From Candidatus Bathyarchaeota archaeon (lineage in GTDB: Archaea; Thermoproteota; Bathyarchaeia; 40CM-2-53-6), in assembly GCA_963833125.1 (NCBI GenBank), contig CAWHWX010000001.1, positions 320,001 through 384,000 of the forward strand: a stretch of DNA of 64,000 nucleotides. The letters are read 5' to 3'. The notes beneath the pieces are model-generated. The model was not told the DNA's origin, searched no databases, and saw only the letters and a program-made list of their open reading frames with translations. This document shows positions 5,516 through 36,477 of this stretch, piece after piece (position 1 is the stretch's first letter; the number at the start of each line of letters is the position of its first letter). The position numbers and the translations under genes were made by a program.

Positions 5516-5530
5516 TAGGTTGATCTGATT

Positions 5531-7524: not shown

Positions 7525-8196
7525 TTGAGTGTGAAGTGTCCGTCTTGCGGTAACGAGATGCCGGAAGGTAACAAGTTCTGTCCCAGTTGCGGTTTCAAGG
7601 TCGAAACCACACAACCCCAAGCAGCAAGCCCCGTCGGCTCCAGTTCAGTTTTCTCGGGTATGGAGTATATTATCGAGCAGAAGATTGCTGCATTGCGGGA
7701 TACGTTCGGCATTAAGGACAGAAACGGCAACTTGCTGGCTTACGTGAAGAAGAAACTCGTCAGTTGGGGGCCACAATTCTATTTCGAAACACCAGACGGA
7801 TCCACGTTGGGTGAGATGAAGGGTAAGGTACTAACGGTCAGGCCGACGTTCGAAATTTACAACCCCCAAGGACTTGTAGCAGTGGTCAAGAAGAAGGTCC
7901 TGAAGCTGCTAGGTTCGGAATGGTGGCTTGAAGATTCGACCGGGAAGGAGATTGCGAGAATTAATGGGAATATAACTGCGCATGAGTTTTCCATTCAAAG
8001 CCCATCAGGTAACACAATAGCCCAGATTCATAAGAAATGGGTGAGCATTCGTGATTCCTATGGCGTAGAAATACAGAGCCGAGAAATCGATCCGTATGTG
8101 ATTCTGGCTTATGCGATCGCCATGGACAACGCCGAATTCAAAGGTGCAAAGAAGGGCTTCGGCATTGGGTTCGGAGGCATACGAACCGACTTCTAA
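7525..8196 (+). CDS. Zinc-ribbon + LURP-one/scramblase (tubby C-like) protein
   Basis: CPSCG..FCPSCG N-terminus; IAQIHKKWVSIRDSYGVEI LURP-one motif. Confidence 0.85.
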   Translation: MSVKCPSCGNEMPEGNKFCPSCGFKVETTQPQAASPVGSSSVFSGMEYIIEQKIAALRDTFGIKDRNGNLLAYVKKKLVSWGPQFYFETPDGSTLGEMKGKVLTVRPTFEIYNPQGLVAVVKKKVLKLLGSEWWLEDSTGKEIARINGNITAHEFSIQSPSGNTIAQIHKKWVSIRDSYGVEIQSREIDPYVILAYAIAMDNAEFKGAKKGFGIGFGGIRTDF

Positions 8197-8294
8197 CTGA
8201 AATGGTATACTTGGAGGTTCTCAAATGCCTGGTACATTGAGAACTTTTCAGCGAGATTCAGAGTTTCTGTGGCAATTGTGCATTTCGGTCTTTC

Positions 8295-8314
8295 GCGTGT
8301 GGGTCTGGTGACTG
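8295..8314 (+). repeat. Degenerate repeat copy
   Basis: GCGTGTGG|GTCTGG|TGACTG between convergent genes. Confidence 0.4.
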
Positions 8315-8337
8315 TTACCGGTACGGTTTCGTTTCAA

Positions 8338-9207
8338 TCATCCAATAATCGCGATCATGAGTAGGCCTGTGATCACGCAGGCGAGAGCGACCAGTTGAAG
8401 CCGATTCAACTTCTCACGAAGCAATATCACGGCGGCCGTCACTGTGACGAGCGGATAGGCACTGGATATTGGAGCAACAAGCGACACGAAGCCCATGCTA
8501 AGCGCAAATGTGAGAGCGAGTGTGCCAGAGACATTAAGGGCAAGGCCAGTCGCTCCGAAAACCCAAGCAGTCCATGACGGCTTCCCAACATTCGAATGTC
8601 CTTGTCCGCTTCGAAACCACATGTAGGCTAAGGGCACCGTGACTGCTGAGATTACGTAAAAGCCGAAAACATTTCCCACACCAATTTTGCTGACCGTAAT
8701 TTTTGCGGTCAGACTCCATAAACCCCAGAGTGCGAACGCCAACAGCGCGAAGAACAAGGATCTTCTCGGGATGGAATACCGTGAATGCGGATTCCGCTCG
8801 TAGGACAAAGCTACGATGCCACAGATTATAGCAGCAACTCCAACTAATTCCGCACCCGTCAGAGACTCTGAAAGGAACGCAAGCGCGCCGATGACAGTCA
8901 AGCTAGGATAGGCGGCTGATATGGTTCCCACGATTGCGACTTGACCGTCCACCACTGATTCTAAGAAGCAGATGTAAGCAGCTGTCCCGACAAAAGCTGA
9001 AGCCGCTGCAAGAGCACCGTATTCTAAGTCAACAACTGCGTTGTTGTGCCAAAAGAGGAAACCTGCAAAATACGCCATGCCCTCAATAACCACTACAAGC
9101 CCGGCTATGCGCGCTACTCCAAGCCTCGGAGTGCTTAGCTTGGCAAAGACATTACCGAAACCCCATAGAAACGCGGTCAGTATCGCAAAAACGAACCAGT
9201 ACTCCAT
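8338..9207 (-). CDS. DMT/EamA family transporter
   Basis: Two EamA repeats, ISAAYP and APISSAYP motifs; likely start MEYWF. Confidence 0.85.
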   Translation of the reverse strand: MEYWFVFAILTAFLWGFGNVFAKLSTPRLGVARIAGLVVVIEGMAYFAGFLFWHNNAVVDLEYGALAAASAFVGTAAYICFLESVVDGQVAIVGTISAAYPSLTVIGALAFLSESLTGAELVGVAAIICGIVALSYERNPHSRYSIPRRSLFFALLAFALWGLWSLTAKITVSKIGVGNVFGFYVISAVTVPLAYMWFRSGQGHSNVGKPSWTAWVFGATGLALNVSGTLALTFALSMGFVSLVAPISSAYPLVTVTAAVILLREKLNRLQLVALACVITGLLMIAIIG

Positions 9208-9474
9208 GAAACCATACCGTCCGCGACTCGTTCCAGGCACACTCCACTCGGACTCCTTAGACTTTAGTGCTTCCGGCCGAGAGACTACTACCATCGTCGA
9301 TTTTCATTTGGAATCGGCTGGATCCTTCACTCCGTTGTTGCTGTTGGTGTAACTCAGCTGTTCTAAGGTTGTGAATTGTTATAGTCTAAGAGTAGAGTTT
9401 ACCAGCCGCTTACGTAAATACTGTAACGGCCAGTATCCTATACTTCTAACCTGCCGTAAAAGGAGCATTCACAT

Positions 9475-9530
9475 GTGTGTGGTATAGCTGGTGCGCGCAC
9501 ACACACACACTTATTGAAGGAACGACGATC
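9475..9530 (+). repeat. Repeat copy with CA tail and inverted linker
   Basis: GTGTGTGG|TATAGC|TGGTGCGCGCACACACACACAC followed by GAAGGAACGACGA. Confidence 0.9.
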
Positions 9531-9567
9531 CAAAATATGACGGAGCACGAGGTGCGTATTCGGTGAG

Positions 9568-10035
9568 TTATCGATGTCTTCTATAGTCCTTCTCTAGCGC
9601 GGCCGCATACTTTGTCCAGACGTCATGAATAGATTTCAGATAATCTGATTTCGACGGATAGTCTCCGATTTTCCATCGTTCAATAAACTTCATGTCCAGT
9701 CTAGTCTTCGCGGAACCGAGTTTCGATAATCTGTATTCTCCCTCTTCGTCATCTTCGTCTCCTCTGGAGTCTAGATGCCAGGACCTGGGTGGGTGTAGAG
9801 TGACTATGTTCACGGCGGTCCGGGTTTTTCCACCGCTCTTGTAGCGAATTGTATAGATCACTCTTTCTTTCGTCTTCTCGAGTATCTTCCTCCTGTTCCC
9901 TGAACCAGTTATCTTCGGGTCGGTGTCACGGAAGTCTGTACACCACCGGTAAGCGAATTTTAATGGCGCGTTGAGCACCTTGGTTGCATGGTAGGTTCTT
10001 ACGTCAGGTTTCTTCGCAGACACGTCGCAAGCCAC
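9568..10035 (-). CDS. SRPBCC/START-like fold protein
   Basis: LNAPLKFAYRWCTDF start, beta-sheet core, C-terminal W-containing helix. Confidence 0.6.
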   Translation of the reverse strand: MACDVSAKKPDVRTYHATKVLNAPLKFAYRWCTDFRDTDPKITGSGNRRKILEKTKERVIYTIRYKSGGKTRTAVNIVTLHPPRSWHLDSRGDEDDEEGEYRLSKLGSAKTRLDMKFIERWKIGDYPSKSDYLKSIHDVWTKYAAALEKDYRRHR

Positions 10036-10121
10036 CGGTGTTAACCCGTTTCCGTTGTGTCGTTATAAATCGCTTACGGAATTTCCCATCCTCAAATCTT
10101 GGCAGACGTTGAGTTAGCTTA

Positions 10122-10212
10122 GTGTGTGCGTGGTATGCTGGTGCGCACACACACTTTTCTGACGACGAACGACGGTCCGATTTTGGACGCCCTCACCAGT
10201 GGATACACGCAC
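10122..10212. repeat. Inverted pair of repeat copies with linker
   Basis: GTGTGTGCGTG|GTATGC|TGGTGCGCACACACAC, then TTTTCTGACGACGAACGACGGTCCGA (near reverse complement of 986-1014), then a degenerate - strand copy. Confidence 0.85.
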
Positions 10213-10288
10213 AAAAGAAAAACGACGGCAGTGGATCTCTAATACCGTAAGCAACTCTCAAATACTCCAATCATGCGAAGTCTGATTT

Positions 10289-10738
10289 ATGACGCAGAAG
10301 TCTGATGTTATCAACCTTCAACTACTAATTCGTAAATCTCCTGAATCGGTTCGTGCTTGGTGGACCGATCTTCCGGAAGACTATCAAGCGAAAGATCCGC
10401 GGGAACAGCCCTACCGAATCGTGACTACCCGTAGGTTATCAAACGGGCGCGAGCTTCGCACGTATTGGCGAATGCCGGATGGTTCAGCATTCGATTTCCA
10501 AGAGATACTGACTTTGAAACCGGATGGGAGTTGGACCTTTGAAATCCCAAACGGCATGGGCTTCCGCATACTCGACGAATTTCGAGCCGAATCAGTTCCA
10601 ACCGGAACTAAACTCACCATTCACAGTACTCTGACACCGCTAGACGCTTCCGCTGCCAGCCGTATTTCGGCACAGGAGGAGCTAATGGCCGAAGGTTGGA
10701 AGGGCGCGGCAGAAATTTGCGAACATGACTCACCTTGA
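10289..10738 (+). CDS. SRPBCC/START-like fold protein
   Basis: IRKSPESVRAWWTD start, GTKLTI, C-terminal GW helix. Confidence 0.6.
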   Translation: MTQKSDVINLQLLIRKSPESVRAWWTDLPEDYQAKDPREQPYRIVTTRRLSNGRELRTYWRMPDGSAFDFQEILTLKPDGSWTFEIPNGMGFRILDEFRAESVPTGTKLTIHSTLTPLDASAASRISAQEELMAEGWKGAAEICEHDSP

Positions 10739-10805
10739 TCAGCTATCAGTTAACATTAACAACAGGTTAATGACGCCGGCCACTTAGATCGACGCAATCG
10801 CGCTG

Positions 10806-11543
10806 ATGAGCTTGTCGAGTTCTTTACGCGCAAAGATTGTCGAAACAGGAAATCTCGATTTAGCGGTTCTATCTGAGATTTTCGGCCGCATTCCTTACGG
10901 AAGAGTGATATTAGCTCTGTATGATCCTGATAGCCAATTTAACTCATTGATGGTCAACGTCGCAGCTGAGCACCTGAAGATCGGGCGTGATCTCCTCTAT
11001 CTTGCCTCATCTAGGCCCACAGTCGAAGTCAGGCAGCAATTCAATGGTCTTGGAGTGAACGTGGCGGAATACGAGGCGAAAGATAATGCGGTTCTCTTTG
11101 ATGATTATTCCACGCAAATGGGCGTGAAGTCACCTGAGAGATATCACTCCACGACTTCGAATCTCAACGAACGGTCCATTACCATAGGTCAGTCGGCACC
11201 CCAATGGCCGGCGGGAACGTTGGTTATTGTAGAGTCCTTCTCGAGCATGGCGGTTAATGAGGAGAACGTCTTTGCGAAGTTCTCGAAACGGGCCGTGGGA
11301 GTATGGAGAGCTCGAGGAGCAGTCATGATAGTTGGTCTGGCAGTCGATATACATACGTTACAATTCTATCAGGAAATGAAACTGCTATGCGATGGAGTGT
11401 TCGAGGTAAGACTAGTTGAACATCACGCAGAGATGATCAATTCGATCAGGTCCAGGTCAATGAAGGGGCAGATGTCAGACTCCAGATGGCGACGGATTCT
11501 ATTCGACAATAAGATGAAAGCTTCACTCCAATTCCTCAAATAG
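10806..11543 (+). CDS. RAD55/KaiC-like RecA-fold protein with degenerate Walker A
   Basis: LYDPDSQF at P-loop position; LCDGVFEVR..RSMKGQMSDSRW. Confidence 0.75.
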   Translation: MSLSSSLRAKIVETGNLDLAVLSEIFGRIPYGRVILALYDPDSQFNSLMVNVAAEHLKIGRDLLYLASSRPTVEVRQQFNGLGVNVAEYEAKDNAVLFDDYSTQMGVKSPERYHSTTSNLNERSITIGQSAPQWPAGTLVIVESFSSMAVNEENVFAKFSKRAVGVWRARGAVMIVGLAVDIHTLQFYQEMKLLCDGVFEVRLVEHHAEMINSIRSRSMKGQMSDSRWRRILFDNKMKASLQFLK

Positions 11544-11572
11544 CGGAAAGAGCAATCTTACAAAGTTTTGCA

Positions 11573-11620
11573 CCGTCGTCGTTCGTTTTCATTTGTGTGT
11601 GGCATTAGTGGTGCGCACCC
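11573..11620 (+). repeat. Repeat copy with linker
   Basis: CCGTCGTCGTTCG...TGTGTGTGG|CATTAG|TGGTGCGCAC. Confidence 0.9.
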
Positions 11621-11695
11621 CACCAGAAAATGCTGAAACAATTCGTTCGGACTTTTCGAATGATGTACGTGATTTTATGTTTTCCTGTGTGCTCA

Positions 11696-12037
11696 TTATG
11701 GACGGGGTTGTTTTAGTTCAACGAATAAGACATGAGTGTTTGTCTCTCCGATATTTTCGCCGATATGCGATTGTTCATCGTTCCAGACGACTTCTCCTCC
11801 CTTAATATCCACAACTACAGACTTACCATTATCGAAAGTAAGTTTCCTCTTGAAAGCACTCAGCATATAGAGCACAGCGTCCGGGTGATGATGCAGCTTT
11901 GTCTTATCGCCAGGTTTGTCTTTGTAATCGATAACTCTTACACGGTCATTTTCGAAAATGACCTTATACTTATCCGGATCAGTTGTTACGGCGTGCGGTA
12001 AAATATTCCTTGCTGCTGACATAACATAAAAAACCAC
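11696..12037 (-). CDS. Small cupin-domain protein
   Basis: FENDRVRV..PGDKT..HHHPD..H.GENIG..VLFVELK. Confidence 0.85.
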   Translation of the reverse strand: MVFYVMSAARNILPHAVTTDPDKYKVIFENDRVRVIDYKDKPGDKTKLHHHPDAVLYMLSAFKRKLTFDNGKSVVVDIKGGEVVWNDEQSHIGENIGETNTHVLFVELKQPRP

Positions 12038-12113
12038 ATACGTACACTAAAACCTTTATTGAGTCCAAAGTGACGGCCTCGCATATCATCGGCTTTTTTT
12101 CGGTTGATTTTTA

Positions 12114-12147
12114 GTGTGTGTGGGTATGCTGGTGCGCACACACACAC
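12114..12147 (+). repeat. Repeat copy forming a 9-bp hairpin
   Basis: GTGTGTGTGG|GTATGC|TGGTGCGCACACACACAC. Confidence 0.9.
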
Positions 12148-12183
12148 GAAAACGGGATCGACGGTGGAACGATGGAGTCGTAG

Positions 12184-12732
12184 TTAGACTTGCCTTGGAT
12201 TAGAGGTTCTGCGTCGGATAATTCCGTACACGATTGCAGTTAGAAACACTAGGATGGCCAGACCGTATGGGTATTCTCCGATTGAGGATAAACATGTGGA
12301 AACAGTGGTCAGAGCGACGGTGGCGGTACTCGTGACGGTGGTTATCGCCTGCTCCAAGACATTCACGAAGCTCGACGCCAGAATAAGCCCGTCAGAGAAT
12401 TGAATCGTCTCTACACAATGTACCCCAATTGGGTATCCAGAAGTAGAGATTGCTATCGGACCAATGTTACCCGAATTGTCAACAAAGGCCTTGTCCGTAA
12501 AAATATTGTTTAGAACGGACCCTGTACAGACTCCGGCGATGTCCGACCAGACCCTAACCGCAACTTCATCAGGCGCCTGGATTGTGTATTCGCCGCCGGA
12601 GACTTGGAAGGTATCCCCTTGAATGACCGTGTTGGGGGTAACGTTGATCGTTTGGACGGCATATACCTTTCCAGCATTAAGAAAAACCAGAATGATTACG
12701 ACTAGGGCTATTGTGGCTTGATTTCTAACCAA
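12184..12732 (-). CDS. Secreted Ig-like protein with PEF-CTERM-like (GEYP) sorting signal
   Basis: Signal peptide, beta-rich body, Thr-rich linker, IGEYPYG + TM + RRR. Confidence 0.8.
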   Translation of the reverse strand: MVRNQATIALVVIILVFLNAGKVYAVQTINVTPNTVIQGDTFQVSGGEYTIQAPDEVAVRVWSDIAGVCTGSVLNNIFTDKAFVDNSGNIGPIAISTSGYPIGVHCVETIQFSDGLILASSFVNVLEQAITTVTSTATVALTTVSTCLSSIGEYPYGLAILVFLTAIVYGIIRRRTSNPRQV

Positions 12733-12892
12733 AAGCGAAAACCGAGCGAGCCGTCACCGACAGAGGCAATATAACACTTTTGCGTGATGAGGATCTTCTT
12801 GACTAATCTTGATTCCCATTTTTTCTTGATGGTGCTAACCAGCCTGTCCACAGACACAACAGAATCTGGTTTTTCATCGTCCTCTTTTGGTG

Positions 12893-12924
12893 TTGTGTGT
12901 GTGCACCAGCATACCCACACACAC
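12893..12924 (-). repeat. Repeat copy, inverted partner of 12114 copy
   Basis: Reverse complement GTGTGTGTGG|GTATGC|TGGTGCACACACAC; first 22 nt identical to the 12114 copy. Confidence 0.9.
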
Positions 12925-13055
12925 TTTTGCGCCGTATGAACGAAACAAGTTATTTGACTTGGGCCGAAAGGCGAACTTGAGAAGTGTCTAGGTGTATCGC
13001 ACAAGAACCTTAAACCCTACAATCACAGAATGGCGTTGGTTCAGGGAGTCGCGAT

Positions 13056-13911
13056 TTGAGGCATGCCATGATCGAGGTGCTGTTGACGATCGCCCTTTTC
13101 CTGTTTTTGATTAATGCTCGGCCTGCATATGCCTTTGCGACCCTAGTTCAACAAAGCAACTTCGGTTGTTCTTGCAATAGTGTTAGTGGCTCCCCTCCCA
13201 CACTGCGCATGTTTCTCTCCTTCTCTCCGGCACTGTGACGGCCGGGGACGTGTTGGTTGTCGGGTTGGCATTCTCTCATCTAGGGAGTCCTTTCCTCATT
13301 GCGTGTGGGTCTCCTATGGTGACGGTTGTCTGTGTGACGGATGCCCATGGCTCACAGTTCACGCAAGCCGTAGCGACGGGGGCGACGGGTAGTTCAGCTG
13401 TGCTCATTTATACGGCTACCATTCCACCGTGTGGAAGTTGCATCCCCTCAGATGAGTTTACTGTAACATTCTTGCGCGTCGCACTTTCATGGATGTGTAC
13501 GCGTATGAAGTGTCTGGCGTAAGCACCGTCGGCCTCGCAACCGGCACGGGTTCAGGGTCCGGAACGATTGTTTCCACATCACCGGTCAGCTTCACAGCGG
13601 GTGCCTTTCTTCTCGGATTCAATATCCATGATTCCGGTGCGTCGGTTACCGCTGGGTCGGGGTTTACACTCAACAATGACCTCCTCGGGATCTCAGCCGC
13701 CGAGTATGCTGACCCGGTCTCTTCGCCAACAACCTTCCCAGCCATCTTAAGCGGCAGCGTGAACTGGGCTGAGGCAGGAATAGCTTTGAATCCGGCACTT
13801 GTTCCTCCAATATCTGAGTATCCTGTGGGGCTACCCTTACTCGCTCTCCTAGCTACGGTCGCCTACGGTGTGGTAAGACGCAGAACTTGTGACAGTCCAA
13901 AGAAGATGTGA
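13056..13911 (+). CDS. Secreted surface protein with PEF-CTERM-like (SEYP) signal, split by two frameshifts
   Basis: ORFs 13056-13238, 13235-13522 and 13489-13911 join into signal peptide + beta-rich domain + ISEYPVG-TM-RRR. Confidence 0.7.
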
Positions 13912-13931
13912 TGACTCATCCTTCAGTTCAA

Positions 13932-14017
13932 GTGTGTGTGGGTCTAATGGTGCGCTTACCAACCGCGGAGAACTTACACAAGCGAAGCCTAGAGACTTTT
14001 CATCCTTTCACACACAC
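13932..14017 (+). repeat. Repeat copy plus distal CACACACAC
   Basis: GTGTGTGTGG|GTCTAA|TGGTGCG at 13932-13954; CACACACAC at 14009-14017. Confidence 0.9.
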
Positions 14018-14043
14018 AAAAATAATTGATTCTCTCGCAGAGT

Positions 14044-14991
14044 CTAGAACTGATATGTCGTACCGACGCTGTTTTGGATGAATGCGCCTGGTGCTGTCCG
14101 CATTATTTCATATACCGCTTTCAATCCTGTACAGTGGCATGGAACGAGGACGCGAGGCTTGAGCGCCGTTAGCTCTTCAATGGTCTTTGGGATTATCGGT
14201 TCAAAGATTCCTCCTGTCAGATGCATTCCGCCTATTACTGCATAGATTGTGTCTTGTCCAGTCAGATCTTTCGCATAATTGATTGTGTTAATGATTCCGG
14301 AATGACCGCAGCCTGTGATGACGACGAGCCCCTTGTCTTTCACATTTAAGACCAGAGCCTGGTCGTCTTGGATTAGGGGATCGTTTTCCATTTTTCCGTC
14401 GATTTCCGCGTAATGAATTGGGAACCCCTTCTCGAATTCATTGATCCTCGGAATTTCCCCTGTGACAAGAATTCTACCATCCAACCGCGGGCTGGGACCA
14501 CTGTCTTCTACGATTTCGTAACCCGCATCTGTCAAGAGCGCCTTGCTTGGAGGGGGAAGCGGCAACGTTCTTCCATCGGGGAATTTTACCATCCTGTTCC
14601 TGAAAGCGTACGGGTGCAAGAGTAACGGCATCTTTCTCGCAGCCGGCATCTTTCGCTTTATGTTTAGAAGTCCACCTGCATGGTCTATGTGGCCGTGGCT
14701 TGAAACAACTGTTTCACAATGGGATAAGTCGAAATCGAGGGCTTCTACGTTATGTACGACGGCAAAGGGGTCTAGTCCGGAATCGAATAGAAGACTACGT
14801 TTCCTTCCGTCGAGTTCCAGAGTGACAAGCGCTGAAAAGCCATGCTCTGCAATCAGCGGCCTTTCAAACCAATCATTTCCCATCATTTTGGGTCTCTTAG
14901 CCACATCGGTTGTTGCGAGTAGAACATCGACCGTGTTGTCCACTAAGCAGGTGACCTCTGCTTTTTCTACTTCTTTCAGGCTAACTGGCAT
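14044..14991 (-). CDS. MBL-fold metallo-hydrolase (MJ0301-like family)
   Basis: AEHGFS, SHGHIDHAGG, DDQAL, GCGHSG, GGMHL, HCTG motifs; likely start MPVSL. Confidence 0.9.
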   Translation of the reverse strand: MPVSLKEVEKAEVTCLVDNTVDVLLATTDVAKRPKMMGNDWFERPLIAEHGFSALVTLELDGRKRSLLFDSGLDPFAVVHNVEALDFDLSHCETVVSSHGHIDHAGGLLNIKRKMPAARKMPLLLHPYAFRNRMVKFPDGRTLPLPPPSKALLTDAGYEIVEDSGPSPRLDGRILVTGEIPRINEFEKGFPIHYAEIDGKMENDPLIQDDQALVLNVKDKGLVVITGCGHSGIINTINYAKDLTGQDTIYAVIGGMHLTGGIFEPIIPKTIEELTALKPRVLVPCHCTGLKAVYEIMRTAPGAFIQNSVGTTYQF

Positions 14992-15029
14992 GACTAAAAT
15001 TAGCGTAGAATGATTAATTTGATTTTTGT

Positions 15030-15074
15030 GTGTGTGTGGGTCTAATGGTGCGAGCGAGGCAAATTCAACCGTCA
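15030..15074 (+). repeat. Repeat copy identical (23 nt) to 13932 copy
   Basis: GTGTGTGTGGGTCTAATGGTGCG, then linker-like AAATTCAACCGTC. Confidence 0.9.
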
Positions 15075-27434: not shown

Positions 27435-28100
27435 CTACGTAACCACAGGTTGCTCGAGAGCATCAACACTCGCTTCATCTAGATCAAGATCGAAGACTTC
27501 CTCGAACCTCCTTCGAACCTGCTCTTTCACATCACGGAACTTCAGGTCTGTCCCAAGCAGGGCTTTCATCGAGGTCATGGTTGAACCAGAGAACCCGCAA
27601 GGGTTAATCTTGTGGAAGTAACTCAAGTCCGTGTTCGCGTTGAGCGCGAATCCGTGAAAGCTTACCCAGTTTCTGATCGCTGCCCCGATTGAAGCAATCT
27701 TCTTGCTTCCTACCCATACACCAGTCTGCTCTCCTCGCCCCCCAGCTATCCCAAACTTCCCAATCGTCAGAATGAGAGTTTGCTCAATATTTCTTAGGAA
27801 TCGATGAATGTCTCGCTCTCTCTCATTCAAGTCTAGAATCGGATAACCCACTACCTGTCCCAAGCCGTGGTACGTCCATTGGCCCCCGCGCTCTATTCGA
27901 TAGACTGGGATGCCATCTATTTGGGGAGGGATGTCCCCAGACACGGCTTTGCCTACTGTGAATACATGTGGATGCTCCACCAAGATCAAGCTATCCGGAA
28001 TCAGTTTCCTCGCTCGAAGATCAACGAGCTTCCGCTGAAGTTCCCAGACTTCTGCATACTCTCGTTGTCCGAGGTCGAGTAGATTTCCTTTCGTTGTCAT
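27435..28100 (-). CDS. lipB: Lipoyl(octanoyl) transferase
   Basis: EHPHVFT, RGGQWTYHG, KIASIG, HGFALN, INPCG. Confidence 0.92.
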   Translation of the reverse strand: MTTKGNLLDLGQREYAEVWELQRKLVDLRARKLIPDSLILVEHPHVFTVGKAVSGDIPPQIDGIPVYRIERGGQWTYHGLGQVVGYPILDLNERERDIHRFLRNIEQTLILTIGKFGIAGGRGEQTGVWVGSKKIASIGAAIRNWVSFHGFALNANTDLSYFHKINPCGFSGSTMTSMKALLGTDLKFRDVKEQVRRRFEEVFDLDLDEASVDALEQPVVT

Positions 28101-29488
28101 TTTTGTAGGATGTGAATCGCTTTTCCTTTTGCTGCCTCGGCTGCCTCCATCACACTTTCTGGTAAAGTGGGGTGGGGGTGAACTGTGAGTCCAATGTCTT
28201 CTAATGTTGCTCCCATTTCTATGGCGAGAGCGGCCTCGCTGATTAGGTCAGAGGCTTCGGTACCAACTATGTGAACACCGAGAACCAAGTCGGAGTTCTT
28301 GTCGGCCACTATCTTGGTGAAACCCTCGGTTTCCCCTGCGAGGAGTGCGCGTCCCAAGGCTGTAAACGGAAACTTCCCAACGATAGGTTCGTACCCCTTT
28401 TCTTTTGCTTGCGATTCGGTGAGGCCGACAGTTGCGATTTCTGGGTCGGTGAATATGACTCCTGGGATCGCATGAAAGTCAGCTTCACTGCTCATTCCCG
28501 CGATAACCTCCGCGGCTACAATCCCTTCCTTGGAGGCCTTGTGTGCGAGCATGGGTGGTCCCACCACATCACCGATCGCATAGATTCCTGGTGAGCTGGT
28601 TTGCATCTTCTTGTTGACTTGAATGAACCCGTGGGAATCAGTTTGGACCCCGGCCTTTTCCAAGCCGATTTCGTCGCTATTTGGACGCCTTCCGACGGTG
28701 ACCAAGACCTTGTCAGCCTCAAATGCGCCTTCCTTCCCGTCCTCTAGGGTGGCGTAGATTTTCCCGTCACGATATTCCTTTGCCTTGGATTTGACATGAT
28801 ATTCAATGCCAAGTTTTCGAAGTGACCTTTCGACGACTCTCACGAGGTCAATGTCGGTTCCCGGGAGAAGTTGGTCTAACATTTCGATTATGGTCACCTT
28901 CGTTCCAAGTTGGGCGTACATAGTTCCCATCTCCAATCCAGTCACGCCGCCCCCGATTATGCCCAACTTTTTCGGGACTTGCTGAAGTGAGAGTGCTTCG
29001 GTTGAGCTGATTATGCTGGTTCCGTTGAACTTGAAAGTGGGAAGGTCGAAGTAACGCGAACCCGTTGCTATGATGATGTCCTTTGCTTCAATGATCTCCG
29101 TCCCAGTCGACTCTTAACTTCAAGCTGGTGAGCGTCAATGAATTTCCCGGATCCTTTTACGAGCTTGACGTTGTTTCCTTTGAGTAGGTAATCGATACCC
29201 GATACTAAGCCGATCGACTACACCCTGTTTCCATGCTTGCACTTTAGCAAAATCTACGTTAACCCCGGTTACCTCTAGGCCAATCTGTTTGGCTGCTTCT
29301 ACCCGCTGTTTTAGTTTCGCGACGCGGATAAGTGCCTTCGAGGGTATACATCCAATGTTTAGGCATACACCGCCTAGCTTTTCTTTTTCTATGAGGATCG
29401 TTTCCTTTCCGAGCTGCCCGAGTCTTATGGCTGCAACATAACCGCCCGGCCCACTCCCAAGCACAGCAGCTTCCGTCTTCTGTGTCAT
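28097..29488 (-). CDS. lpdA: Dihydrolipoyl dehydrogenase (E3), two frameshifts
   Basis: GSGPGGY, GGVCLNIGCIPSK, HPHPTLPE; middle part found in another frame. Confidence 0.9.
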
Positions 29489-29731
29489 TTTAACCCCTAA
29501 ATTCAGATTTATGAGGCGAATGTTAGGCTTAATCCTAAAAGTTTGCTTCGACCCTCCCGAACCTCCCGTTCGGATTTCTCCAGCCGTTCAGCCACCTCGT
29601 CGAGTTCGGCTAGGTACTGGATCTCAAATCACCGATTGCTCGCAGAAATCTAGACGTATGGCAAAGCTACGCTAACCTGGTCTACCGTAGCGGTTTAATG
29701 GTAGTCCAGACTGAGTTCAAATTCAGTTGCC

Positions 29732-29754
29732 CGCACCACTAGACCCACACACAC
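29732..29754 (-). repeat. Repeat copy
   Basis: Reverse complement GTGTGTGTGG|GTCTAG|TGGTGCG. Confidence 0.9.
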
Positions 29755-29791
29755 TGAACGACCCGCCGGAAGACTGCCCTCGACTAATTCT

Positions 29792-30127
29792 TCAAGTGTT
29801 CAACGTCCATCCCATTAGATCTCTTACAAGTGTGATCTGTTCGCGTATTACGTCCACAAGCTTCTTCACTGGTTGTAACGCTGCGAGGTATGCGCCTTGC
29901 GACCCGTAAGTTGTTGCAATAAGCTCTTCATGCTGCCGGTTATAATGCTCGCAATGAATGAACAGGTTTCGCAATGCTCTAAATTGGATAGGTTTTAGCT
30001 GAAACAGAAGTCCACTCGACTTTGCGACTTCCCATGAATCAAGAGGGATGTACGGAAGCTTATCGGAGTCAAGTTCGTGAAACACTTGATCCATCACATC
30101 AACCTCTTCTCTCAGTAACAAAAGCAA
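29792..30127 (-). CDS. Hypothetical helical protein (start uncertain)
   Basis: 111-aa ORF directly downstream of the nuclease-like gene. Confidence 0.5.
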   Translation of the reverse strand: MLLLLREEVDVMDQVFHELDSDKLPYIPLDSWEVAKSSGLLFQLKPIQFRALRNLFIHCEHYNRQHEELIATTYGSQGAYLAALQPVKKLVDVIREQITLVRDLMGWTLNT

Positions 30128-30132
30128 CTTGC

Positions 30133-30726
30133 CTAGGTCGCCTTCCTGTTTCTCCCACTTCCGTTGAGCGGCGGGTATGCGATAAGTAACACGAATTGAG
30201 TGGGATTTAGCGAAATCTGTTCGAAGAGACCCTCGTAGCCACAGACTGGTTTATCGCAACGGTTCGGTGCAACAAGCTCTGGGGTATACTCGGTTCTGCA
30301 ACGAGGGCATCTAACCATACGCTTTCCTGACCACGCAATCGTCGCGAATCCAGCATTGGCATAGATTGGTGCCCAACTTTCCGCGTCGAGTTGAGGAATG
30401 ACAACACTAACAGTGTCAGTTGGGTGGCTTCTCTTGTACTTTTTGAGTTGTCTTAGTGTTCCTCCGATATCATATTCGTGAATCTCCCCAACCCGCAAAA
30501 CCTTGACGTGCGTCTTTATCTCGAATCTTAGTCTATGATTCGAGGTCGTGGCTGAAACATCGGGCCAGCCTTCCCCAGAAGGATCTTCCAGATCGAAGCC
30601 CAAGAGATCTTCCCGCACCAGTTCTTTTGTGATTGTTCTTAGACCACCATCCAGAACAAACGTGCGAGCAACATCATCCTGAAGAGTCACTGACCGGACA
30701 CTTCCTACTCCTTTGCAATGGATCAC
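30133..30726 (-). CDS. Putative PD-(D/E)XK nuclease with C-terminal zinc finger
   Basis: WPDV...FEIKT...QLKKY motif order; CPRC...CDKPVC. Confidence 0.6.
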   Translation of the reverse strand: MIHCKGVGSVRSVTLQDDVARTFVLDGGLRTITKELVREDLLGFDLEDPSGEGWPDVSATTSNHRLRFEIKTHVKVLRVGEIHEYDIGGTLRQLKKYKRSHPTDTVSVVIPQLDAESWAPIYANAGFATIAWSGKRMVRCPRCRTEYTPELVAPNRCDKPVCGYEGLFEQISLNPTQFVLLIAYPPLNGSGRNRKAT

Positions 30727-30759
30727 GTCTGGGAGACATTATGTGATCTCCACACTGTT

Positions 30760-31566
30760 CTAGGTTTTGGTTATTGGAATGCCAAAGTCGGCAAAAGTCT
30801 TCTGGATCTCAGAATTGGCCAGACTTACTGCTATCCCGTATAGACTTGGTATCTTTATCCAAATTTCTTGGCCGTTCTTCTCCAAATGCCTTTGACGAAC
30901 TGGCATGGGTTGAAAGCGTGTGCAAATAGCATGAACATTTCCAGTCGATTGAGCGATAATAGGTCCACCGCTATTTCCGTAGTTCAAAGCCTTGTCAAGC
31001 ACGTATACCTTTGTATCCGCCGCGGACATCACCATTCTTGACTTCTCGAAAGTTGAAGAAACTATTGCAGATGTAACTCGCGGGGAATGCTCAACTATTC
31101 CGACTGTTGCGCCCGGCATTTCGAATGATTTTGCCATCGACAATGGGTACCCAAATGAGTATACGGGCTCTCCCTCCTCCAAGTCGCGCACTGAAGTGAG
31201 TATGTAGGGAAACTCAGTTTTTCCTTGTAGCCAAGCCTTGTTGGAGTTCTTTGCGAAATCAACTTTTATTAGCGCAAAATCATTTTTCGAATCTACATGT
31301 TTTAGCTCAACGTACTGACACATGTCTCCGGGTCTCCCTTGCCCTGGTCGAGATTCTTTCATCAACCAAGCCTGGTTGACATCATCTCGAACTTTTGCTG
31401 ACTCACCTTCGCCATGCATTACGACATGTGCAGCCGTAGCAAACCAGCCGTCACTTGACACGAAGAAACCTGTTCCTGCAGGTGTTGGCAGACCTTTGTT
31501 CAAATCGCTGGGAAGATCGATAGAGAACGTGGCAGTTTGTGTTCGACTAAGGGTTTTCCTAATCAT
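30760..31566 (-). CDS. Trypsin-like (S1) serine protease, no signal peptide
   Basis: GTGFF, TAAHV, DFALI, GYP, GNSGGP catalytic triad motifs. Confidence 0.9.
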   Translation of the reverse strand: MIRKTLSRTQTATFSIDLPSDLNKGLPTPAGTGFFVSSDGWFATAAHVVMHGEGESAKVRDDVNQAWLMKESRPGQGRPGDMCQYVELKHVDSKNDFALIKVDFAKNSNKAWLQGKTEFPYILTSVRDLEEGEPVYSFGYPLSMAKSFEMPGATVGIVEHSPRVTSAIVSSTFEKSRMVMSAADTKVYVLDKALNYGNSGGPIIAQSTGNVHAICTRFQPMPVRQRHLEKNGQEIWIKIPSLYGIAVSLANSEIQKTFADFGIPITKT

Positions 31567-31757
31567 CGATTGTACCTTCTATCCTTGCAGCGACCTTACG
31601 ATACACTCGAAAACTTTTTCGACCTTTGGCGTTTTGTCGGAGATAATGAAGCGTACTCTTGCCAATGCCCCGTTGTTTGGCATGAGATCCAGTGAGCGAG
31701 AATCTTAGCGCGCATTCCAAGATCCGCATTTCGTACTAGCCTTGGTGCAGGATAGTC
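31559..31757 (-). pseudogene. Remnant of the C-terminal HTH of a casposase/solo-type Cas1
   Basis: Across two frameshifts: DYPAPRLVRNADLGMRAKILA/LTGSHAKQRGIGKSTLHYLRQNAKG/SFRVYRKVAARI; recognised by recall of the family, not by search. Confidence 0.6.
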
Positions 31758-31822
31758 CGCACTACAATTTCAACACGCCGAACAGTAGCGCGTCACGGCC
31801 GGCGGCTGCGAAGAGTGGTGCA

Positions 31823-31844
31823 GGGTGTGGGTATTCATGGTTTG
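31823..31844 (+). repeat. Degenerate repeat copy just upstream of the cas1-like remnant
   Basis: GGGTGTGG|GTATTCA|TGGTTTG (7-nt core). Confidence 0.35.
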
Positions 31845-31953
31845 AGGTTTGTAAGTTTATGGCGAGTTGGGGATGTTTATGAAATCAATATGCTTTCGTT
31901 TCTTGGAACTTGGATAGACATAAGAAGAATCAATGGTAACCTTCCGGCCTGCA

Positions 31954-32795
31954 ATGACCCGAAGAACAAAGGTCCCGAAACAGATCGAAGCAAGCGTTCT
32001 CTTTGAGAATGATCACACATGCTGCATTTGCAGAGAACCGCGGGAAAGACGTAATAACACATCATATAGACGGAGACAGCAGTAACAATGATCCGACGAA
32101 CCTAGCCGTTCTCTGTCACGATTGTCATAGCAGAGTCACAGGTACACACGGCCTTGGCCGGAAATACTCTTCAATAGAGGTCGGGAAGTACAAACGGGAT
32201 TGGGAGTTCATTGTACGAAAGAAGCGGCACCTTATCATTGAACCGTATCGGAAACTTGAGAAATCTGAAGTGAGATCCACTAGATTCGAGATCAAAAGAA
32301 ATCTGTACGAGCTAGCCGACGGAGAATGGCAAACGAGCCAAAGAGATACTGGAGCTACTAGACATTTATTACATCTATGAGGGCGAGTCGGATTATGTTT
32401 TGGATACGCTAAACGTTCTGGTACCACTCACTCACGGCGCCACAAACCGCCTCGCAGCGGAGTACGCTCTTCACTATTTTTGGCATCTCCCCGGACCAGA
32501 GTACACCCAGATCACAAAGAAAGACATGCGAATTATAGGCAAGGCCATACAATTTCTTACTTGGATGGGGGAATACAGTGCTGAATTCGGCGAAGAAGGC
32601 ACGACAGTACGGGCGGCCTTGAGAGCTCTTCACTCACTATTCGAGACGGTCAGCTCCTACCACGTGAAGAAGCTGGAGACCAGAATTAAGAAATCATATC
32701 GGTCAATCAGGAAGGCAATGCTGGCGTCCGAATATCCGAAAAGAGAAAAGAAGTCGATCATAGCGACCGCAGATTCTTACTTGAGAAGAACATAG
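31954..32795 (+). CDS. HNH endonuclease domain fused to a helical C-terminal region, two frameshifts
   Basis: MTRRTKVPKQIEASVLFENDHTCCICRE / HHIDGDSSNNDPTNLAVLCHDCH. Confidence 0.75.
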
Positions 32796-32830
32796 ATGGA
32801 ATAGAAGTTCGTCACGGGCGGCGGGGGCGG

Positions 32831-32853
32831 CGCACCACTAGACCCACACACAC
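32831..32853 (-). repeat. Repeat copy identical to 29732 copy
   Basis: CGCACCACTAGACCCACACACAC, 23/23 match. Confidence 0.9.
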
Positions 32854-32873
32854 GAAGCGCTACATTACAAGTC

Positions 32874-33640
32874 CTACGTGACCAGTGTTGCTTCGCCGTT
32901 TTGTTTAATTTGGATTTCGTGCCATCGAGCATCGTGCGGCTGGCCCTTTAGGCTTCTGATGCGGAGGAGGTTCTTCGCTTCCTCATCTCGCTCCTTAACC
33001 CGCACGTCGATAACTCCGTCAATGTCGCTTTCCAATCGTTTGTAAAATGACTCCGTATGAATACCACGGACAAATCCGTTGAGAAGTATCCTTTTGGCTC
33101 TCCGGCAGTTTGGGTTGACTCTGCTGATCGCCCCTTCCAGGTAGGGTTTCTCTTCATTGAATCGAAGCAATTGCGAGCTGGACCCCGCTACGGTGAGAGC
33201 GCCTGGAGGCCAAGTTTCAAAGGCGTCCCCAGATTCGGGGCCTTGCGTCATATCCTTGAGGTATTGAACGCTGAGGTCGGAGAGTTTCAGAGAAATGCGC
33301 ACGGTATCCTCCCTCGATCGGTTCGAACATAGAGGGCCCTCCTTCCTCAAGTCTACCCCCGGTAAGCGTTGCTGAATACCAGTCGTCCAAGGCAAAACGG
33401 CCTTCGCTAATCACCGTTGAGACATCAACGCCCAACGCAAGCAGCCTCTCCCTAACGGTTTCTGGGGATCCAAGCATGGCGGTGTATGATACGCGTCCCC
33501 CTGCACGAAGGTAACCTGCGGTGATCGTGCCGCAACAGGTAACCATTAGGATTCTGGATCAAATTCAACAAGGAATAATGTTCCAGGTTTAACTCCATCC
33601 GGGATGAGGTCGGTTAGGACTGGGATGCTGACTAGGTGGT
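32874..33640 (-). CDS. RAD55/KaiC-like paralog of 2616-3434, multiple frameshifts (error or pseudogene)
   Basis: IPVLTDLIPDGVKPGTLFLVEFDPES / DWYSATLTGGR / LRIRSLKGQPHDARWH. Confidence 0.7.
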
Positions 33641-33830
33641 CAGAGGGCAAGGTAGGGCGAGGGAAGCAGTGGTTGAGGTCACCAAAAGGATTGACGGTTG
33701 AACTCGTTTTTTCTGGGGGGAAGTGCACACCACTAAAGCCCGGTTCTGTTAACTTAAACGGGTGGTCGAGTCAGTGTTTTCCCATGTTAACTATTCGGGA
33801 GGTTATTCGATAGTCTATCGGATGCTAACT

Positions 33831-33965
33831 CTAGAGTTCGCTTAGGAGATCGGTTAGCCTCTTTTCTAGCTTCTTGAGTTTTGGTTCAATAATATAGAAT
33901 TGAAAGTGGTTGACGGCTAGGCCGATCATCTTTTGAATTTCGCTCTCGTCAGGTTCGCTCAACAT
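33831..33965 (-). CDS. 44-aa hypothetical protein (not in ORF track)
   Basis: MLSEPDESEIQKMIGLAVNHFQFYIIEPKLKKLEKRLTDLLSEL preceded by SD-like GAGGTGA. Confidence 0.55.
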   Translation of the reverse strand: MLSEPDESEIQKMIGLAVNHFQFYIIEPKLKKLEKRLTDLLSEL

Positions 33966-34239
33966 TCTTCTTTCACCTCTATGACGAGAGGTCTTCGTAC
34001 GTACCTTAAGAGAACTTTTCTTCTTTCCAACGAATCGAAGTTTAATTAAATCTCAGTGTTAATTCGTGAAAGCAGTTTTCTTATTTTTGTATCTTAGACG
34101 AAAATGACGGGGAAATCGTTGGGGGATTTGTTCAGCCGACGACTTGCAAACCAGTTTTTCAGCCTCTTGCGAACATATAGAATGGCGGGCGTCATGGCTG
34201 GAATCGCAGTCAAGACGACTTCAACCATTTGAATGCCGA

Positions 34240-34572
34240 TCAATAAATCCACTCCTCCTTAAGCTGCCGCCGAACACCTGTTATGCCAAATGCCTCTTTC
34301 ACCCAATCGCTAATGGAAGCTGGCTCCATGTATTTTTGCGTGAAATAACGAACTCCAAGCGTTCCAATCCCCATGTTGCAATTGTAGCACAAAGGAACGA
34401 GATTCCTTAGGCTGTCACTTCCACCCCTTGACTTTGCGATCTTGTGACCAACATGCCATGCACCGTGCTGACCCTGTTGCCTATTTGAAAAAGAAAGCCA
34501 CTTCCCGCAAATGTAACACTGACCATTGTTCGATTCGAAAACCAACATTTCTCTCTCGGCTTGAGTAAACAC
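34240..34572 (-). CDS. HNH endonuclease
   Basis: CYICG..HVGHKIAKSRGGSDSLRNLVPLCYNCN. Confidence 0.85.
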   Translation of the reverse strand: MFTQAEREMLVFESNNGQCYICGKWLSFSNRQQGQHGAWHVGHKIAKSRGGSDSLRNLVPLCYNCNMGIGTLGVRYFTQKYMEPASISDWVKEAFGITGVRRQLKEEWIY

Positions 34573-34596
34573 GGGCAGTCCCCTCTATTCTTGAGA

Positions 34597-34830
34597 TTAT
34601 GCGTTCATTCTTCTCAGCAATCGGATGCGTTCTTTCTTCTCCCTGTCCCACTCAAGCTTTCCACGCGGTAAGGGTTTAGGACCACCGATTTCGAGCTCGG
34701 CACGATCTGGAGAAATTGTATTGATTACTGTTTCCCCGACCTTGGGTTTTCGTGAAGCATGGCCCACCCTAAAGTATTTGGGGCTTTTACGCCTAAACAT
34801 TGACCTACTCCCTCCCAATCTAAAGCTCAA
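34597..34830 (-). CDS. Small basic hypothetical protein
   Basis: Tightly packed co-oriented ORF; GGAGG before internal ATG (MFRRK). Confidence 0.5.
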   Translation of the reverse strand: MSFRLGGSRSMFRRKSPKYFRVGHASRKPKVGETVINTISPDRAELEIGGPKPLPRGKLEWDREKKERIRLLRRMNA

Positions 34831-35081
34831 ACCTGAACGCCCTCTATCGTATGGAAGAATGCTTTGTCAAATACTGGTTGCCAAGTCGGATGGTCTTTCT
34901 TCACACACTCGATACATTGCGCAAGGGTTTCTTCCTTAGTCTTCCCCAACTTCAACCCTTCTCGTCTTAAGGCATTGTAAAAGCCACGCAAATCTGCTTG
35001 ACCATCGTAGATGTGCCTACCCGTCCTCGGAATATGTTGAAGTTCGCCGTTAACTATCTGTGTCATCTCTTCCTTTTTCAT
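34827..35081 (-). CDS. Small hypothetical protein
   Basis: 84 aa, protein-like composition, abuts the next ORF. Confidence 0.6.
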   Translation of the reverse strand: MKKEEMTQIVNGELQHIPRTGRHIYDGQADLRGFYNALRREGLKLGKTKEETLAQCIECVKKDHPTWQPVFDKAFFHTIEGVQV

Positions 35082-35410
35082 AATTCACACCCATTCATGC
35101 CCACAGGAAGCCGCACCGCATCTATGAGGTTCTACGTGTCCTTTAGGAAGAACGCAACCGTGAATGTGAGTCGTGTCGGTAGCTTTGCCAACTCCACAAC
35201 GGTCAGGTGGAGCATACTCAGTTAGATGTGCTCTATTCATCCGAGTCACCGAGACAGAAGGAGAAGGTGATGGGTATTGAGAAGTTGATCGTAGCGCAGC
35301 TGCCACAAGAGCACTCAATTGGATGATTTTGTGAACGCTGATAGAGCCAAGCTAGACCTTCGACAGCGAGAGCAACTAAAGCCGCATTCCTTCGCTTCAA
35401 TAGCAGTCAC

Positions 35411-35839
35411 TTATCCGAAAAGATTCGCAAAGAACTGGAATACAGGCAAGAGAAAACCGAACGCAAAAAGCATTGGTGCTAGGTATTTGCAAGCTTTCTT
35501 AACCGCTAACAATTGGTCATGCTGTTGACCACTGAACGCCAATGTCAAAGCAACCATGCCCAAGACGAAGCCAGCACTTGTGAGCCAGTTTATCCCAACC
35601 CATCCAGCGATCTGAAGTCTTAGTTCGGGAATGCCCATCGTAAAAGTCCATGTTAGAATGCCATGCTCAACTAGGAGTGTGGGAAAATACAGGATTATGG
35701 TTACGACTGCGCAGAAGAAAGCCCAAACACCGCTACGCCACCTAACCGAATCGGCAAAGCGATTCGAGATGGCCATTAATCCACCAAGGACCACACCAGC
35801 AAATAGTCCAACGAATAGAGGATCTCCTAGCATGTCCAT
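35411..35839 (-). CDS. Hypothetical 4-TM membrane protein
   Basis: Four hydrophobic segments. Confidence 0.7.
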   Translation of the reverse strand: MDMLGDPLFVGLFAGVVLGGLMAISNRFADSVRWRSGVWAFFCAVVTIILYFPTLLVEHGILTWTFTMGIPELRLQIAGWVGINWLTSAGFVLGMVALTLAFSGQQHDQLLAVKKACKYLAPMLFAFGFLLPVFQFFANLFG

Positions 35840-35850
35840 GTTAGTGCTAC

Positions 35851-35885
35851 ACTGTCCTAGCTGTACAGTTAGGACAGTAATTATA
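35851..35885. promoter_or_regulatory. 28-bp palindrome (candidate operator) abutting a TATA-like box
   Basis: ACTGTCCTAGCTGT/ACAGTTAGGACAGT, 13 of 14 pairs; TATAATTA on - strand at 35885-35878. Confidence 0.7.
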
Positions 35886-35893
35886 CTGTATTA

Positions 35894-36058
35894 TTAAGCT
35901 TTGCTCGGACGTTGGACAGGCTGTATGAATACCTCTTTGCCCTTTGACACAAGCGCCACGTACTCTGGGTCACCGAGATCAGTCATTACATCCTTAGGAA
36001 TTGTAATTCTCTTGCTACCTGAGCCAGTTGGGAATACCTTCACAATCTTGAAGCTCAT
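35894..36058 (-). CDS. AbrB/MazE/SpoVT-like DNA-binding protein (54 aa)
   Basis: MSFKIVKVFPTGSGSKRITIPKDVMTDLG..VALV..EVFIQPV. Confidence 0.75.
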   Translation of the reverse strand: MSFKIVKVFPTGSGSKRITIPKDVMTDLGDPEYVALVSKGKEVFIQPVQRPSKA

Positions 36059-36477
36059 ATCACGAAACACTATCTCCTTCCTTAGCATAAAAATTAGTGA
36101 CAGTCTGGCACTTTTAACACTTGGTACACCTGAACTCACAAAAATCGACACCAGCACTGTTTTAAATGACGCTATTGCCGCAAACAAACACATCAACTCT
36201 GCTTGGCCAAGTATTCGCTCACAATCACACGTACTGTCTCTGGGATCGAGTCCAAGAGTCATTTCTTTCGTTCCTTCTCTAATGCCCGCTCCATTTCTTC
36301 CGAGATGGAGAGGGTAAATCGTTTCATTATCGTGCTCGGCACTTATTGACACTGCCACTCTCCAACCCATCCCTTCAGGTTTCCTTGACAAGGCGCTCAG
36401 TTCGCTCTCCATAGCCCGCTCCGATATGAACACTATAATCGTGATGAGAAGACGAACACCGCACGAACAATTGTCAT

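Follow-up and report, generated by a model that had tools for sequence, protein, structure and literature searches.

The minus strand of the window (the whole stretch of DNA analysed, 64,000 nucleotides from a Candidatus Bathyarchaeota archaeon) very probably carries the remnant of a casposase gene, situated in an internally deleted casposon that is bounded by a target-site duplication (TSD); the dispersed repeat found around it would consist of this TSD plus the element terminus, and the intact relatives of the element would be devoid of PolB. The family revealed in this way is provisionally regarded as a new polymerase-less variant of the family-2 casposons.

The casposase relic

Positions 31559-31757 (minus strand) encode the C-terminal HTH tail, i.e., the last ~62 residues, of a Cas1-type integrase. 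The main tail ORF of the ORF list (31559..31729, minus strand, 56 aa) ends with ...AKQRGIGKSTLHYLRQNAKGRKSFRVYRKVAARIEGTIDD*, and the adjacent frame of the region translates as DYPAPRLVRNADLGMRAKILA. The overlap between the stop of the tail and the start of the protease gene noticed in the initial annotation exists, the end of the tail ORF and the start of the protease ORF (30760..31566) sharing 8 nt. Against a casposase HMM of 407 model positions, built from the casposases of 14 relatives, the family-2-type relic (31559..31757, minus strand) extends over positions 342-403 (linker and HTH tail) with one frame change. Its main piece reaches 45.0 bits (E 2.9e-16, positions 361-403 of 407); the piece in the second frame is weak alone (3.3 bits, E 0.0013 per piece, 85 pieces tested) and is collinear with and adjacent to the main piece (positions 342-362). 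When two full Cas1 proteins were compared with the window by tblastn, 31574-31699 was the sole place found (E 2e-10, ~60% identity), all other window matches to both proteins having E > 0.5, and neither tblastn nor the casposase HMM detected Cas1 homology upstream of ~31757, i.e., of model position 342. Neither Pfam nor NCBIfam gives a match for the 56-aa ORF itself, which has no second copy in its own genome; PF01867 (Cas1) has 0 matches in this whole genome (87.8% complete, 7% contamination), such that nothing here indicates recent activity.

The relic possesses the C-terminal HTH extension of ~60-70 residues of the M. mazei/A. boonei type; it lacks the N-terminal domain of Cas1 as well as the catalytic one with its E/H/E active site. 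Around 340 codons, comprising these two domains, have probably been deleted, with linker and HTH alone surviving, so that the relic would be unable to integrate DNA. This stub is dead or, at most, has a regulatory role. Instead of the two frameshifts initially annotated, there is one frame change in this assembly, near 31695-31702, and even this one is gone in a 157-nt contig of public run X1, which has two extra letters behind 31695 and is otherwise identical to the window. Since the frames differ by two, these two letters arithmetically bring both pieces into one frame, and the break at 31695 may thus be an assembly error or a polymorphism.

Full-length relatives

Related genomes encode proteins of ~405 aa whose C-termini share ~60% identity with the tail. 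Among the 60 related genomes searched with the tail ORF, 25 contain matches at E <= 1; at E < 1e-3 there are 54 matches (best 6.3e-13, 64% identity), of which 15 are located at the C-terminus of open frames of at least 390 aa and 39 in shorter frames, some of which run off their contig. PF01867 is matched at 5e-56 and 1e-52 by two long frames (408 and 404 aa). Among 1.84 billion representative proteins, searched exhaustively, 65 match at E <= 1e-3 (best 6e-7); most of these are short and match at their C-terminus.

Concerning the kind of Cas1, the solved structure closest to the full-length proteins is 6opm_A (8.4e-77, residues 4-395 against 21-405, HTH included), which is the family-2 casposase of M. 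mazei (available part of PMC6977970); the best CRISPR Cas1 structure is matched at 2.1e-22. TIGR00287, the general cas1 model, matches the full-length relatives at 1e-53 to 1e-57, none of the CRISPR-subtype NCBIfam models reaches its cut-off on them, and E167, H236, and E253 show no variation among the 14 aligned relatives. The decayed casposase-like cas1 tail that had been proposed for this gap is therefore borne out by the profile match and by the relatives, which are Cas1 proteins with a C-terminal HTH and not unrelated HTH proteins. According to the accessible text of PMC6614799, only family-2 casposases have the C-terminal HTH, which is missing in CRISPR Cas1 and in the other casposase families; the initial statement that archaeal casposon Cas1 proteins carry it and CRISPR Cas1 does not is consequently right for CRISPR and too wide for the casposases, as it applies to family 2 only. 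The M. mazei casposase is inactive without the HTH, which is essential for integration (PMC6977970, in the part available).

The closest named casposase records belong to Candidatus Bathyarchaeota/Bathyarchaeia MAGs, followed by a tier with 33-39% identity from Methanolobus, Methanosarcina, DPANN, and Thermoplasmata. In a quick tree of 50 of 78 loci (full-length, stop-free matches, picked by hand; rooted at the midpoint only), 16 proteins of the main type are situated beyond a branch with an SH-aLRT of 100, apart from a methanogen/DPANN group (99).

The cas1 gene has a common break point at model positions 332-342, at P-A-P codons (CCTGCACCA) resembling the target core. Auto-integration and nested insertion are models considered both for this break point and for the inverted 14-mer pairs described below.

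Truncated transposases are able to inhibit their parent elements, and it is conceivable, if unlikely, that the casposase-derived tail is kept as a putative working HTH protein of ~52-56 aa, translationally coupled to the protease gene; such a stub might repress or compete with casposition by binding to the leader or to an element end. Conservation of the HTH part is good (45 bits), and the only frame break vanishes in the public contig. The predominance of open frames < 390 aa among the tail matches (39 of 54 at E < 1e-3) also fits, although some of these frames end at contig ends. The tail-only remnants of four relatives (L002, L003, L005, L008; 8e-17 to 3e-22) likewise start at positions 332-342, and an internal Met is common to L002 and the window; however, V, L, or M is usual there in full-length genes too, so that a start codon at this place is not distinctive, and the shared break point may equally represent a deletion hot spot, given the resemblance of the P-A-P codons to the target core. 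A role of the HTH in recognising the sequence that precedes the site has been proposed, but the same authors did not succeed in demonstrating that the isolated HTH of M. mazei binds DNA (both in the available part of PMC6977970).

The window element

The relic of the casposase gene lies within an element (29746-32830) that, judged from its sequence, is probably an internally deleted casposon; it measures 3,085 bp, and ~4.1 kb would be expected with an intact cas1. As initially annotated, identical 23-mers (29732-29754 and 32831-32853) bracket the relic, whereas the degenerate copy noted at 31823 is a mere 8-nt core, with 5.5% of 3,000 random 65-nt windows scoring as high. On the other strand, the repeat reads CGCACCA-N7, followed by CACACACAC. 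The 23-mer can hence be divided into a putative 14-bp TSD (CGCACCA+N7) and the presumed first 9 bp of the element terminus.

The left duplication (29732..29745, plus strand) is preceded by a leader (29717..29731, plus strand) that consists of a tRNA T-loop mimic, TCAAATT (29717-29723), and 8 nt. This leader is not a tRNA gene, and neither ARAGORN nor Rfam found any tRNA in the window. The 14 bp of the duplication are identical (14/14) to 32831-32844 and start with 5'-CGCA, as does the TSD consensus of M. mazei. After the left terminus of the CACACACAC type (29746..29790, plus strand), three genes are encoded on the minus strand, i.e., a cargo ORF of 111 aa with no family match (29792..30127), a cargo ORF of 197 aa with weak zinc-ribbon-like matches (30133..30726; E 0.06-0.3), and a trypsin-like serine protease of 268 aa (30760..31566; PF13365 4.4e-16; PADLOC RT-Protease_XI protease region 9.6e-11). 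Just upstream of the start of the Cas1 homology, an internal copy of the right end (31780..31805, minus strand) exhibits 21 of 26 positions identical to 32799-32824 in the same orientation, its score of 27 being reached by 0 of 500 shuffles. Divergent from the relic, an HNH nuclease-like ORF of 125 aa follows (32003..32380, plus strand; PADLOC ZorE HNH region 6.5e-8; PF13392 1.5e-4 and PF01844 1.4e-3, both below the Pfam cut-offs), and the same divergent arrangement of HNH and cas1 is found in L009. An ORF of 131 aa with no family match (32400..32795, plus strand) precedes the right terminus (32817..32830, plus strand), whose ...GGCGGCGGGGGCGG or GGC type also bounds the casposase elements of L009 and L018. 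The right duplication (32831..32844, plus strand), identical to 29732-29745, passes directly into the start (CACACACAC; 32845..32853, plus strand) of the next element of the array, which contains a frameshifted KaiC-like gene.

The perfect 14-bp duplication at its bounds agrees with the earlier view of the island as a casposon-like element. The two ends of the element are unlike (CACACAC-type and GGC-type) and are not inverted repeats of each other; the internal copy of the right end suggests that the element is composite or resulted from an end-associated deletion.

A soil-metagenome contig of 3,335 nt, which is independent of this assembly, shows ~91.5% identity to 29728-31687; it contains 1,097 nt of unlike sequence before 29728, such that its homology begins 4 nt before the duplication. 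Dozens of public contigs with unlike flanks match the 42-nt junction, the comparison covering contigs, and only small shares (0.18, 0.07, 0.06), of the public runs. A joint 29748->32830 was tried as an empty site and rejected as too weak (one contig, with 26 letters on the shorter side).

Target sites and element ends

The pattern GTGTGTGTGG-N6-TGGTGCG has six copies in the window. Throughout the own genome (G000), the 23-bp repeat occurs in 38 copies at <= 4 mismatches and in 34 copies at <= 1 mismatch in the fixed positions (reversed control: 0); a relaxed site definition gives 89 sites, as compared to 3 in the reversed-sequence control, and a single element family was found at two loci. The motif is present in 33 of 61 genomes (reversed-pattern control: 0-1 match per genome), which belong to 8 of 19 genera and include all 6 genera with tail matches at E < 1e-3, an overlap that is weak by itself, since kin are not independent.

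A TTCAAAT motif is situated exactly 8 bp upstream of the 14-bp duplication. Within the 40 nt upstream of 47 CGCACCA-N7-CACACAC sites of G000, an exact TCAAAT is found at offset -15 in 11 of 11 cases, and a real tRNA-Ala(TGC) gene ends with ...CGCACCA followed by such a site. This geometry equals that of mapped family-2 casposase targets, which argues for the 14-mer as TSD and for the CA run as element end: the target of A. boonei has TCAAATC at -15..-9, 8 bp before a TSD of 14-15 bp (PMC6614799, available part), and that of M. mazei a TSD of 14 bp with CGCA at the first four positions, overlapping the tRNA end (PMC6977970, likewise in part). Solo-TIRs beside CGCA are known as remnants (PMC4779613, as far as its text is available). 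The link between a Cas1 integrase and the dispersed repeat, at first put forward as speculation, thus receives strong support, with the motif serving as both target and element end. Apart from the CA run, ends of the ...GGCGGCGGGGGCGG and poly-G types exist at the sites.

Two random sites share N7 with a chance of ~0.018. Among site pairs within 25 kb, the same N7 was found in 6 of 118 direct and in 4 of 107 inverted pairs, and L017 has a pair with the same N7 in inverted orientation, too. A simple TSD model would not lead one to expect inverted pairs of this kind; in M. mazei, however, a TSD in reverse complement was seen after in vivo casposition (available text of PMC10359463).

The inverted pairs with the same central variant would also suit site-specific recombination, i.e., the 23-bp repeats might be att sites of a tyrosine recombinase (or of another enzyme) at the tRNA-Ala 3' end, with cas1 as a mere passenger. 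The 3' ends of tRNA genes are classic att sites, and two motif-rich genomes (G016 and G018, with 20 and 29 motif copies) have no Cas1 match at all. This explanation is nevertheless very improbable: the ORFs (at least 70 aa) of the complete elements contain no tyrosine recombinase or other integrase family according to Pfam, the repeat comprises just 14 bp, with inverted element ends on its flanks, the spacing of TCAAAT, 8 bp, and CGCA is that of experimentally mapped casposase targets, and all 6 tail-bearing genera are among the 8 motif-bearing ones, even if kinship overstates this last point. An integron-like or Xer/dif-like recombination site was dropped in view of the TSD-bracketed casposase elements and the published target geometry. 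The possibility that a short ORF resembles HTH motifs by chance, to which the lack of a Pfam or NCBIfam match of the 56-aa ORF itself might point, is refuted by the profile score with its collinear second piece, by tblastn, by the 54 matches in relatives, and by the position of the remnant inside a TSD-bounded element, and its probability is next to nil.

Intact casposase elements in relatives

A casposon origin of the window element agrees with the loci of its relatives, 14 of which were taken, 11 being of the main type. Identical direct 14-mers, the first one following a T-loop-like leader, bracket the casposase gene in 4 of these 11: in L009 (CGCACCAGCATACC, element of 11.0 kb), in L018 (CGCACCAGCTGACC, 7.1 kb), in L020 (CGCACCAAGGTACC, 9.4 kb), and in L016, where three copies of CGCACCACTATACC delimit a tandem array of 8.6 kb with an intact cas1 and then 8 kb with a 5'-truncated cas1. 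Of the 19 Bathyarchaeia-type loci (at least 52% identity) of the named collection, studied with flanks of +-10 kb, only five are bracketed; four are the places of L009, L016, L018, and L020, and the fifth (L037) has the same 14-mer as the window. The motif thus occurs at intact cas1 genes as well, with five distinct casposase elements of 7.1-11 kb bracketed by identical motif 14-mers, in each case beside a T-loop-like leader. Six further loci exhibit one proper junction with the casposase gene on the element side, and L017 has a direct pair of unlike 14-mers. Short inverted ends are found in the relatives, GGC/GGC in L009 and L018 and CACAC/GTGTG in L016 and L020. Casposase loci are homologous at the nucleotide level only as far as the gene borders, so that the element borders cannot be found by comparison of copies.

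Absence of a polymerase and cargo genes

Neither the complete elements of the relatives nor the window element contain PolB (Pfam, ORFs of at least 70 aa). Three PolB matches of genome G014 are all located on a contig other than those with its two casposase genes. At 15 further loci of the clade (+-10 kb, ORFs of at least 430 aa), PolB matches were found at two, both strong and of cellular type; the one of L032 (869 aa) is situated outside the site-bounded segment, and the one of L041 (764 aa) 7 kb from the casposase, where the element borders are not delimited. As a positive control, 5 of 5 named methanogen loci were found to encode a PolB of 877-913 aa at ~2 kb from the casposase; in the same scan, L056, L057, and L068 have an ORF of the same size without a Pfam match, and L058 and L090 have none. 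The intact cas1 genes of these elements are hence not flanked by polB, whose presence beside them had initially been put forward as a check.

In the literature, as far as the parts available of PMC6452270 and PMC9966878 go, casposons are defined by Cas1 and PolB, TIRs, and a TSD, and PolB is invariably present; family 2 universally carries Cas1, PolB, HNH, and two HTH proteins (PMC9939771, in part). PolB-free mini-casposons are able to translocate in vivo if the casposase is supplied (PMC10359463, in part). Descriptions of polymerase-less casposons or of casposons in Bathyarchaeia were not found in the literature covered, mainly openly accessible main texts, so that this result is provisional.

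Immediately downstream of the casposase, the gene content varies, frequently with defence-like genes (TIR/ThsB-like, AbiU with 1.1e-43, type II methylase); in the window, this place is occupied by the protease, which is akin to RT-associated proteases. Directly upstream of the casposase, Csa3-like winged-helix proteins are encoded.

Comparison with known systems

With the family-2 casposons of M. mazei (MetMaz1FA1A3-C2; 6OPM), the elements studied here share a casposase with a C-terminal HTH, a 14-bp TSD that begins with CGCA and overlaps a tRNA 3' end, tandem insertions together with solo-end remnants, and genes for HNH and HTH proteins beside cas1. Despite this similarity, there are clear differences: the complete elements lack PolB; the target is the end of tRNA-Ala, whose encoded CCA leads to 7 rather than 4 fixed positions; the termini are short and simple (CACACAC... 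or CCGCCCCCGCC...); and the casposases constitute a separate, well-supported branch of the quick, unrooted tree, with only 33-39% identity to the methanogen enzymes. AciBoo-C1 of Aciduliprofundum boonei has the same offset of the T-loop motif (TCAAAT[T/C] here, TCAAATC at -15..-9 there), whereas its TSD starts with CC, its tRNA is tRNA-Pro, and it encodes PolB.

Equally to the elements studied here, the casposons of Thaumarchaeota (family 1 and the single family-2 NitNCS1-C1) reside in hosts of the TACK group, are integrated by a Cas1 homologue, and carry nuclease- and defence-like cargo (PMC6563490, in the part available); those of family 1, in contrast, have no HTH, possess a protein-primed PolB, and mostly use ef-2 as target (same part of that source). 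The Cas1 of CRISPR adaptation resembles the full-length relatives in fold and catalytic triad, but it has no C-terminal HTH; no cas2 and no CRISPR array were found near the casposase genes.

Proposed mechanism

For the intact elements, a mechanism can be inferred from the published family-2 enzymes. The window element would have been inserted beside the mimic of a tRNA 3' end, thereby duplicating 14 bp of the target (CGCACCACTAGACC). An intact casposase would read TCAAAT[T/C] 8 bp upstream of the target as well as CGCA at the 5' edge of the target, and would join the two 3'-OH ends of the element to opposite strands, 14 bp apart; gap repair would then duplicate the 14-mer. Reuse of one site, and of target mimics inside the element ends, may give rise to tandem arrays and solo-end mini-units.

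A more far-reaching reading is tentative and rather doubtful, namely that Bathyarchaeia of soil and peat harbour a large, undescribed branch of casposons that manages without a polymerase, ferries defence genes (TIR, AbiU-like, methylase, protease), has dozens of junctions per genome, and builds short arrays in the order leader, 14-bp repeat, end fragment of ~50 nt, and 14-bp repeat. If this were true, the short arrays would be a present-day counterpart of the step that has been proposed to lead from casposons to CRISPR arrays, and HTH-only casposase stubs like that of the window may be retained as regulators of array building.

Biological significance

The value of the window relic lies in its being the key to the reading of polymerase-less casposons. 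By this reading, a conspicuous dispersed repeat, which annotation pipelines would leave unexplained, is accounted for, and a sequence-defined set of target and ends from a globally abundant uncultured class of archaea becomes available for biochemistry. The CRISPR adaptation machinery is presumed to descend from casposons. If the proposed interpretation is true, a multi-copy clade has kept the casposase, the 14-bp CGCA duplication, and the T-loop leader, and has lost PolB and gained defence cargo; an integrase module would then be able to persist and spread without self-replication, which is the state that the scenario of CRISPR origin assumes.

Island between the E2 and E3 genes

An island of 7.0 kb (window 29489-36466) is flanked by the genes for dihydrolipoamide acyltransferase (E2) and dihydrolipoamide dehydrogenase (E3) and fills exactly the gap from the E2 stop to the E3 start, with both of its edges carrying the 8-bp string TGTCATTT. 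The E2 and E3 genes are contiguous in one relative (locus L023), and in other relatives they are spaced by 0.1-1.3 kb. The E3 gene of the window (28097-29488, - strand) is divided into two ORFs of 289 aa and 117 aa, whereas it forms a single frame of 463-489 aa in relatives; this split reflects either a gene disruption beside the island or a mis-assembly at 28097-29488. Further inside the island lies a second HNH endonuclease ORF (34240-34572, - strand; PF01844, 2.1e-8).

Junction sites and truncated casposase genes

Junction sites, i.e., the 14-mer CGCACCA-N7 plus an element end, form a second cluster of 11 at window 1601-15052, which comprises a mini-array of three units at 1601, 1662, and 1711, spaced by 61 and 49 nt. 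The cluster also contains two sites in inverted orientation, at 12136 and 12902, that share the same rare 14-mer and enclose an end-bounded segment of 765 bp. In relatives, 5'-truncated casposase genes (L002 1480-1775, L008 1477-1922, and L016 8347-9155) directly follow a junction site and an element end. The tail-only casposase stubs have their common start at model positions 332-342 of the casposase profile, where the P-A-P codons CCTGCACCA are similar to the target core.

Possible other element types

In the related genome G017 (G017:C4:956660-968889), a partial Cas1 gene and a protein-primed-type match to family B DNA polymerases (PolB; PF03175, 1.9e-14) are separated by about 10.5 kb. They may represent a distinct type of casposon in G017, one that carries a polymerase. 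The frameshifted KaiC/RecA-like gene of the island (32874-33728, - strand) adjoins repeat sites and belongs to a diverged, multi-copy family found at 17 further places in the source genome of the window (G000; 26-55% identity). Twelve of the 18 copies are located less than 1 kb from a site, compared to 4% of random points. The KaiC/RecA-like gene may be a hallmark of the non-casposase elements.
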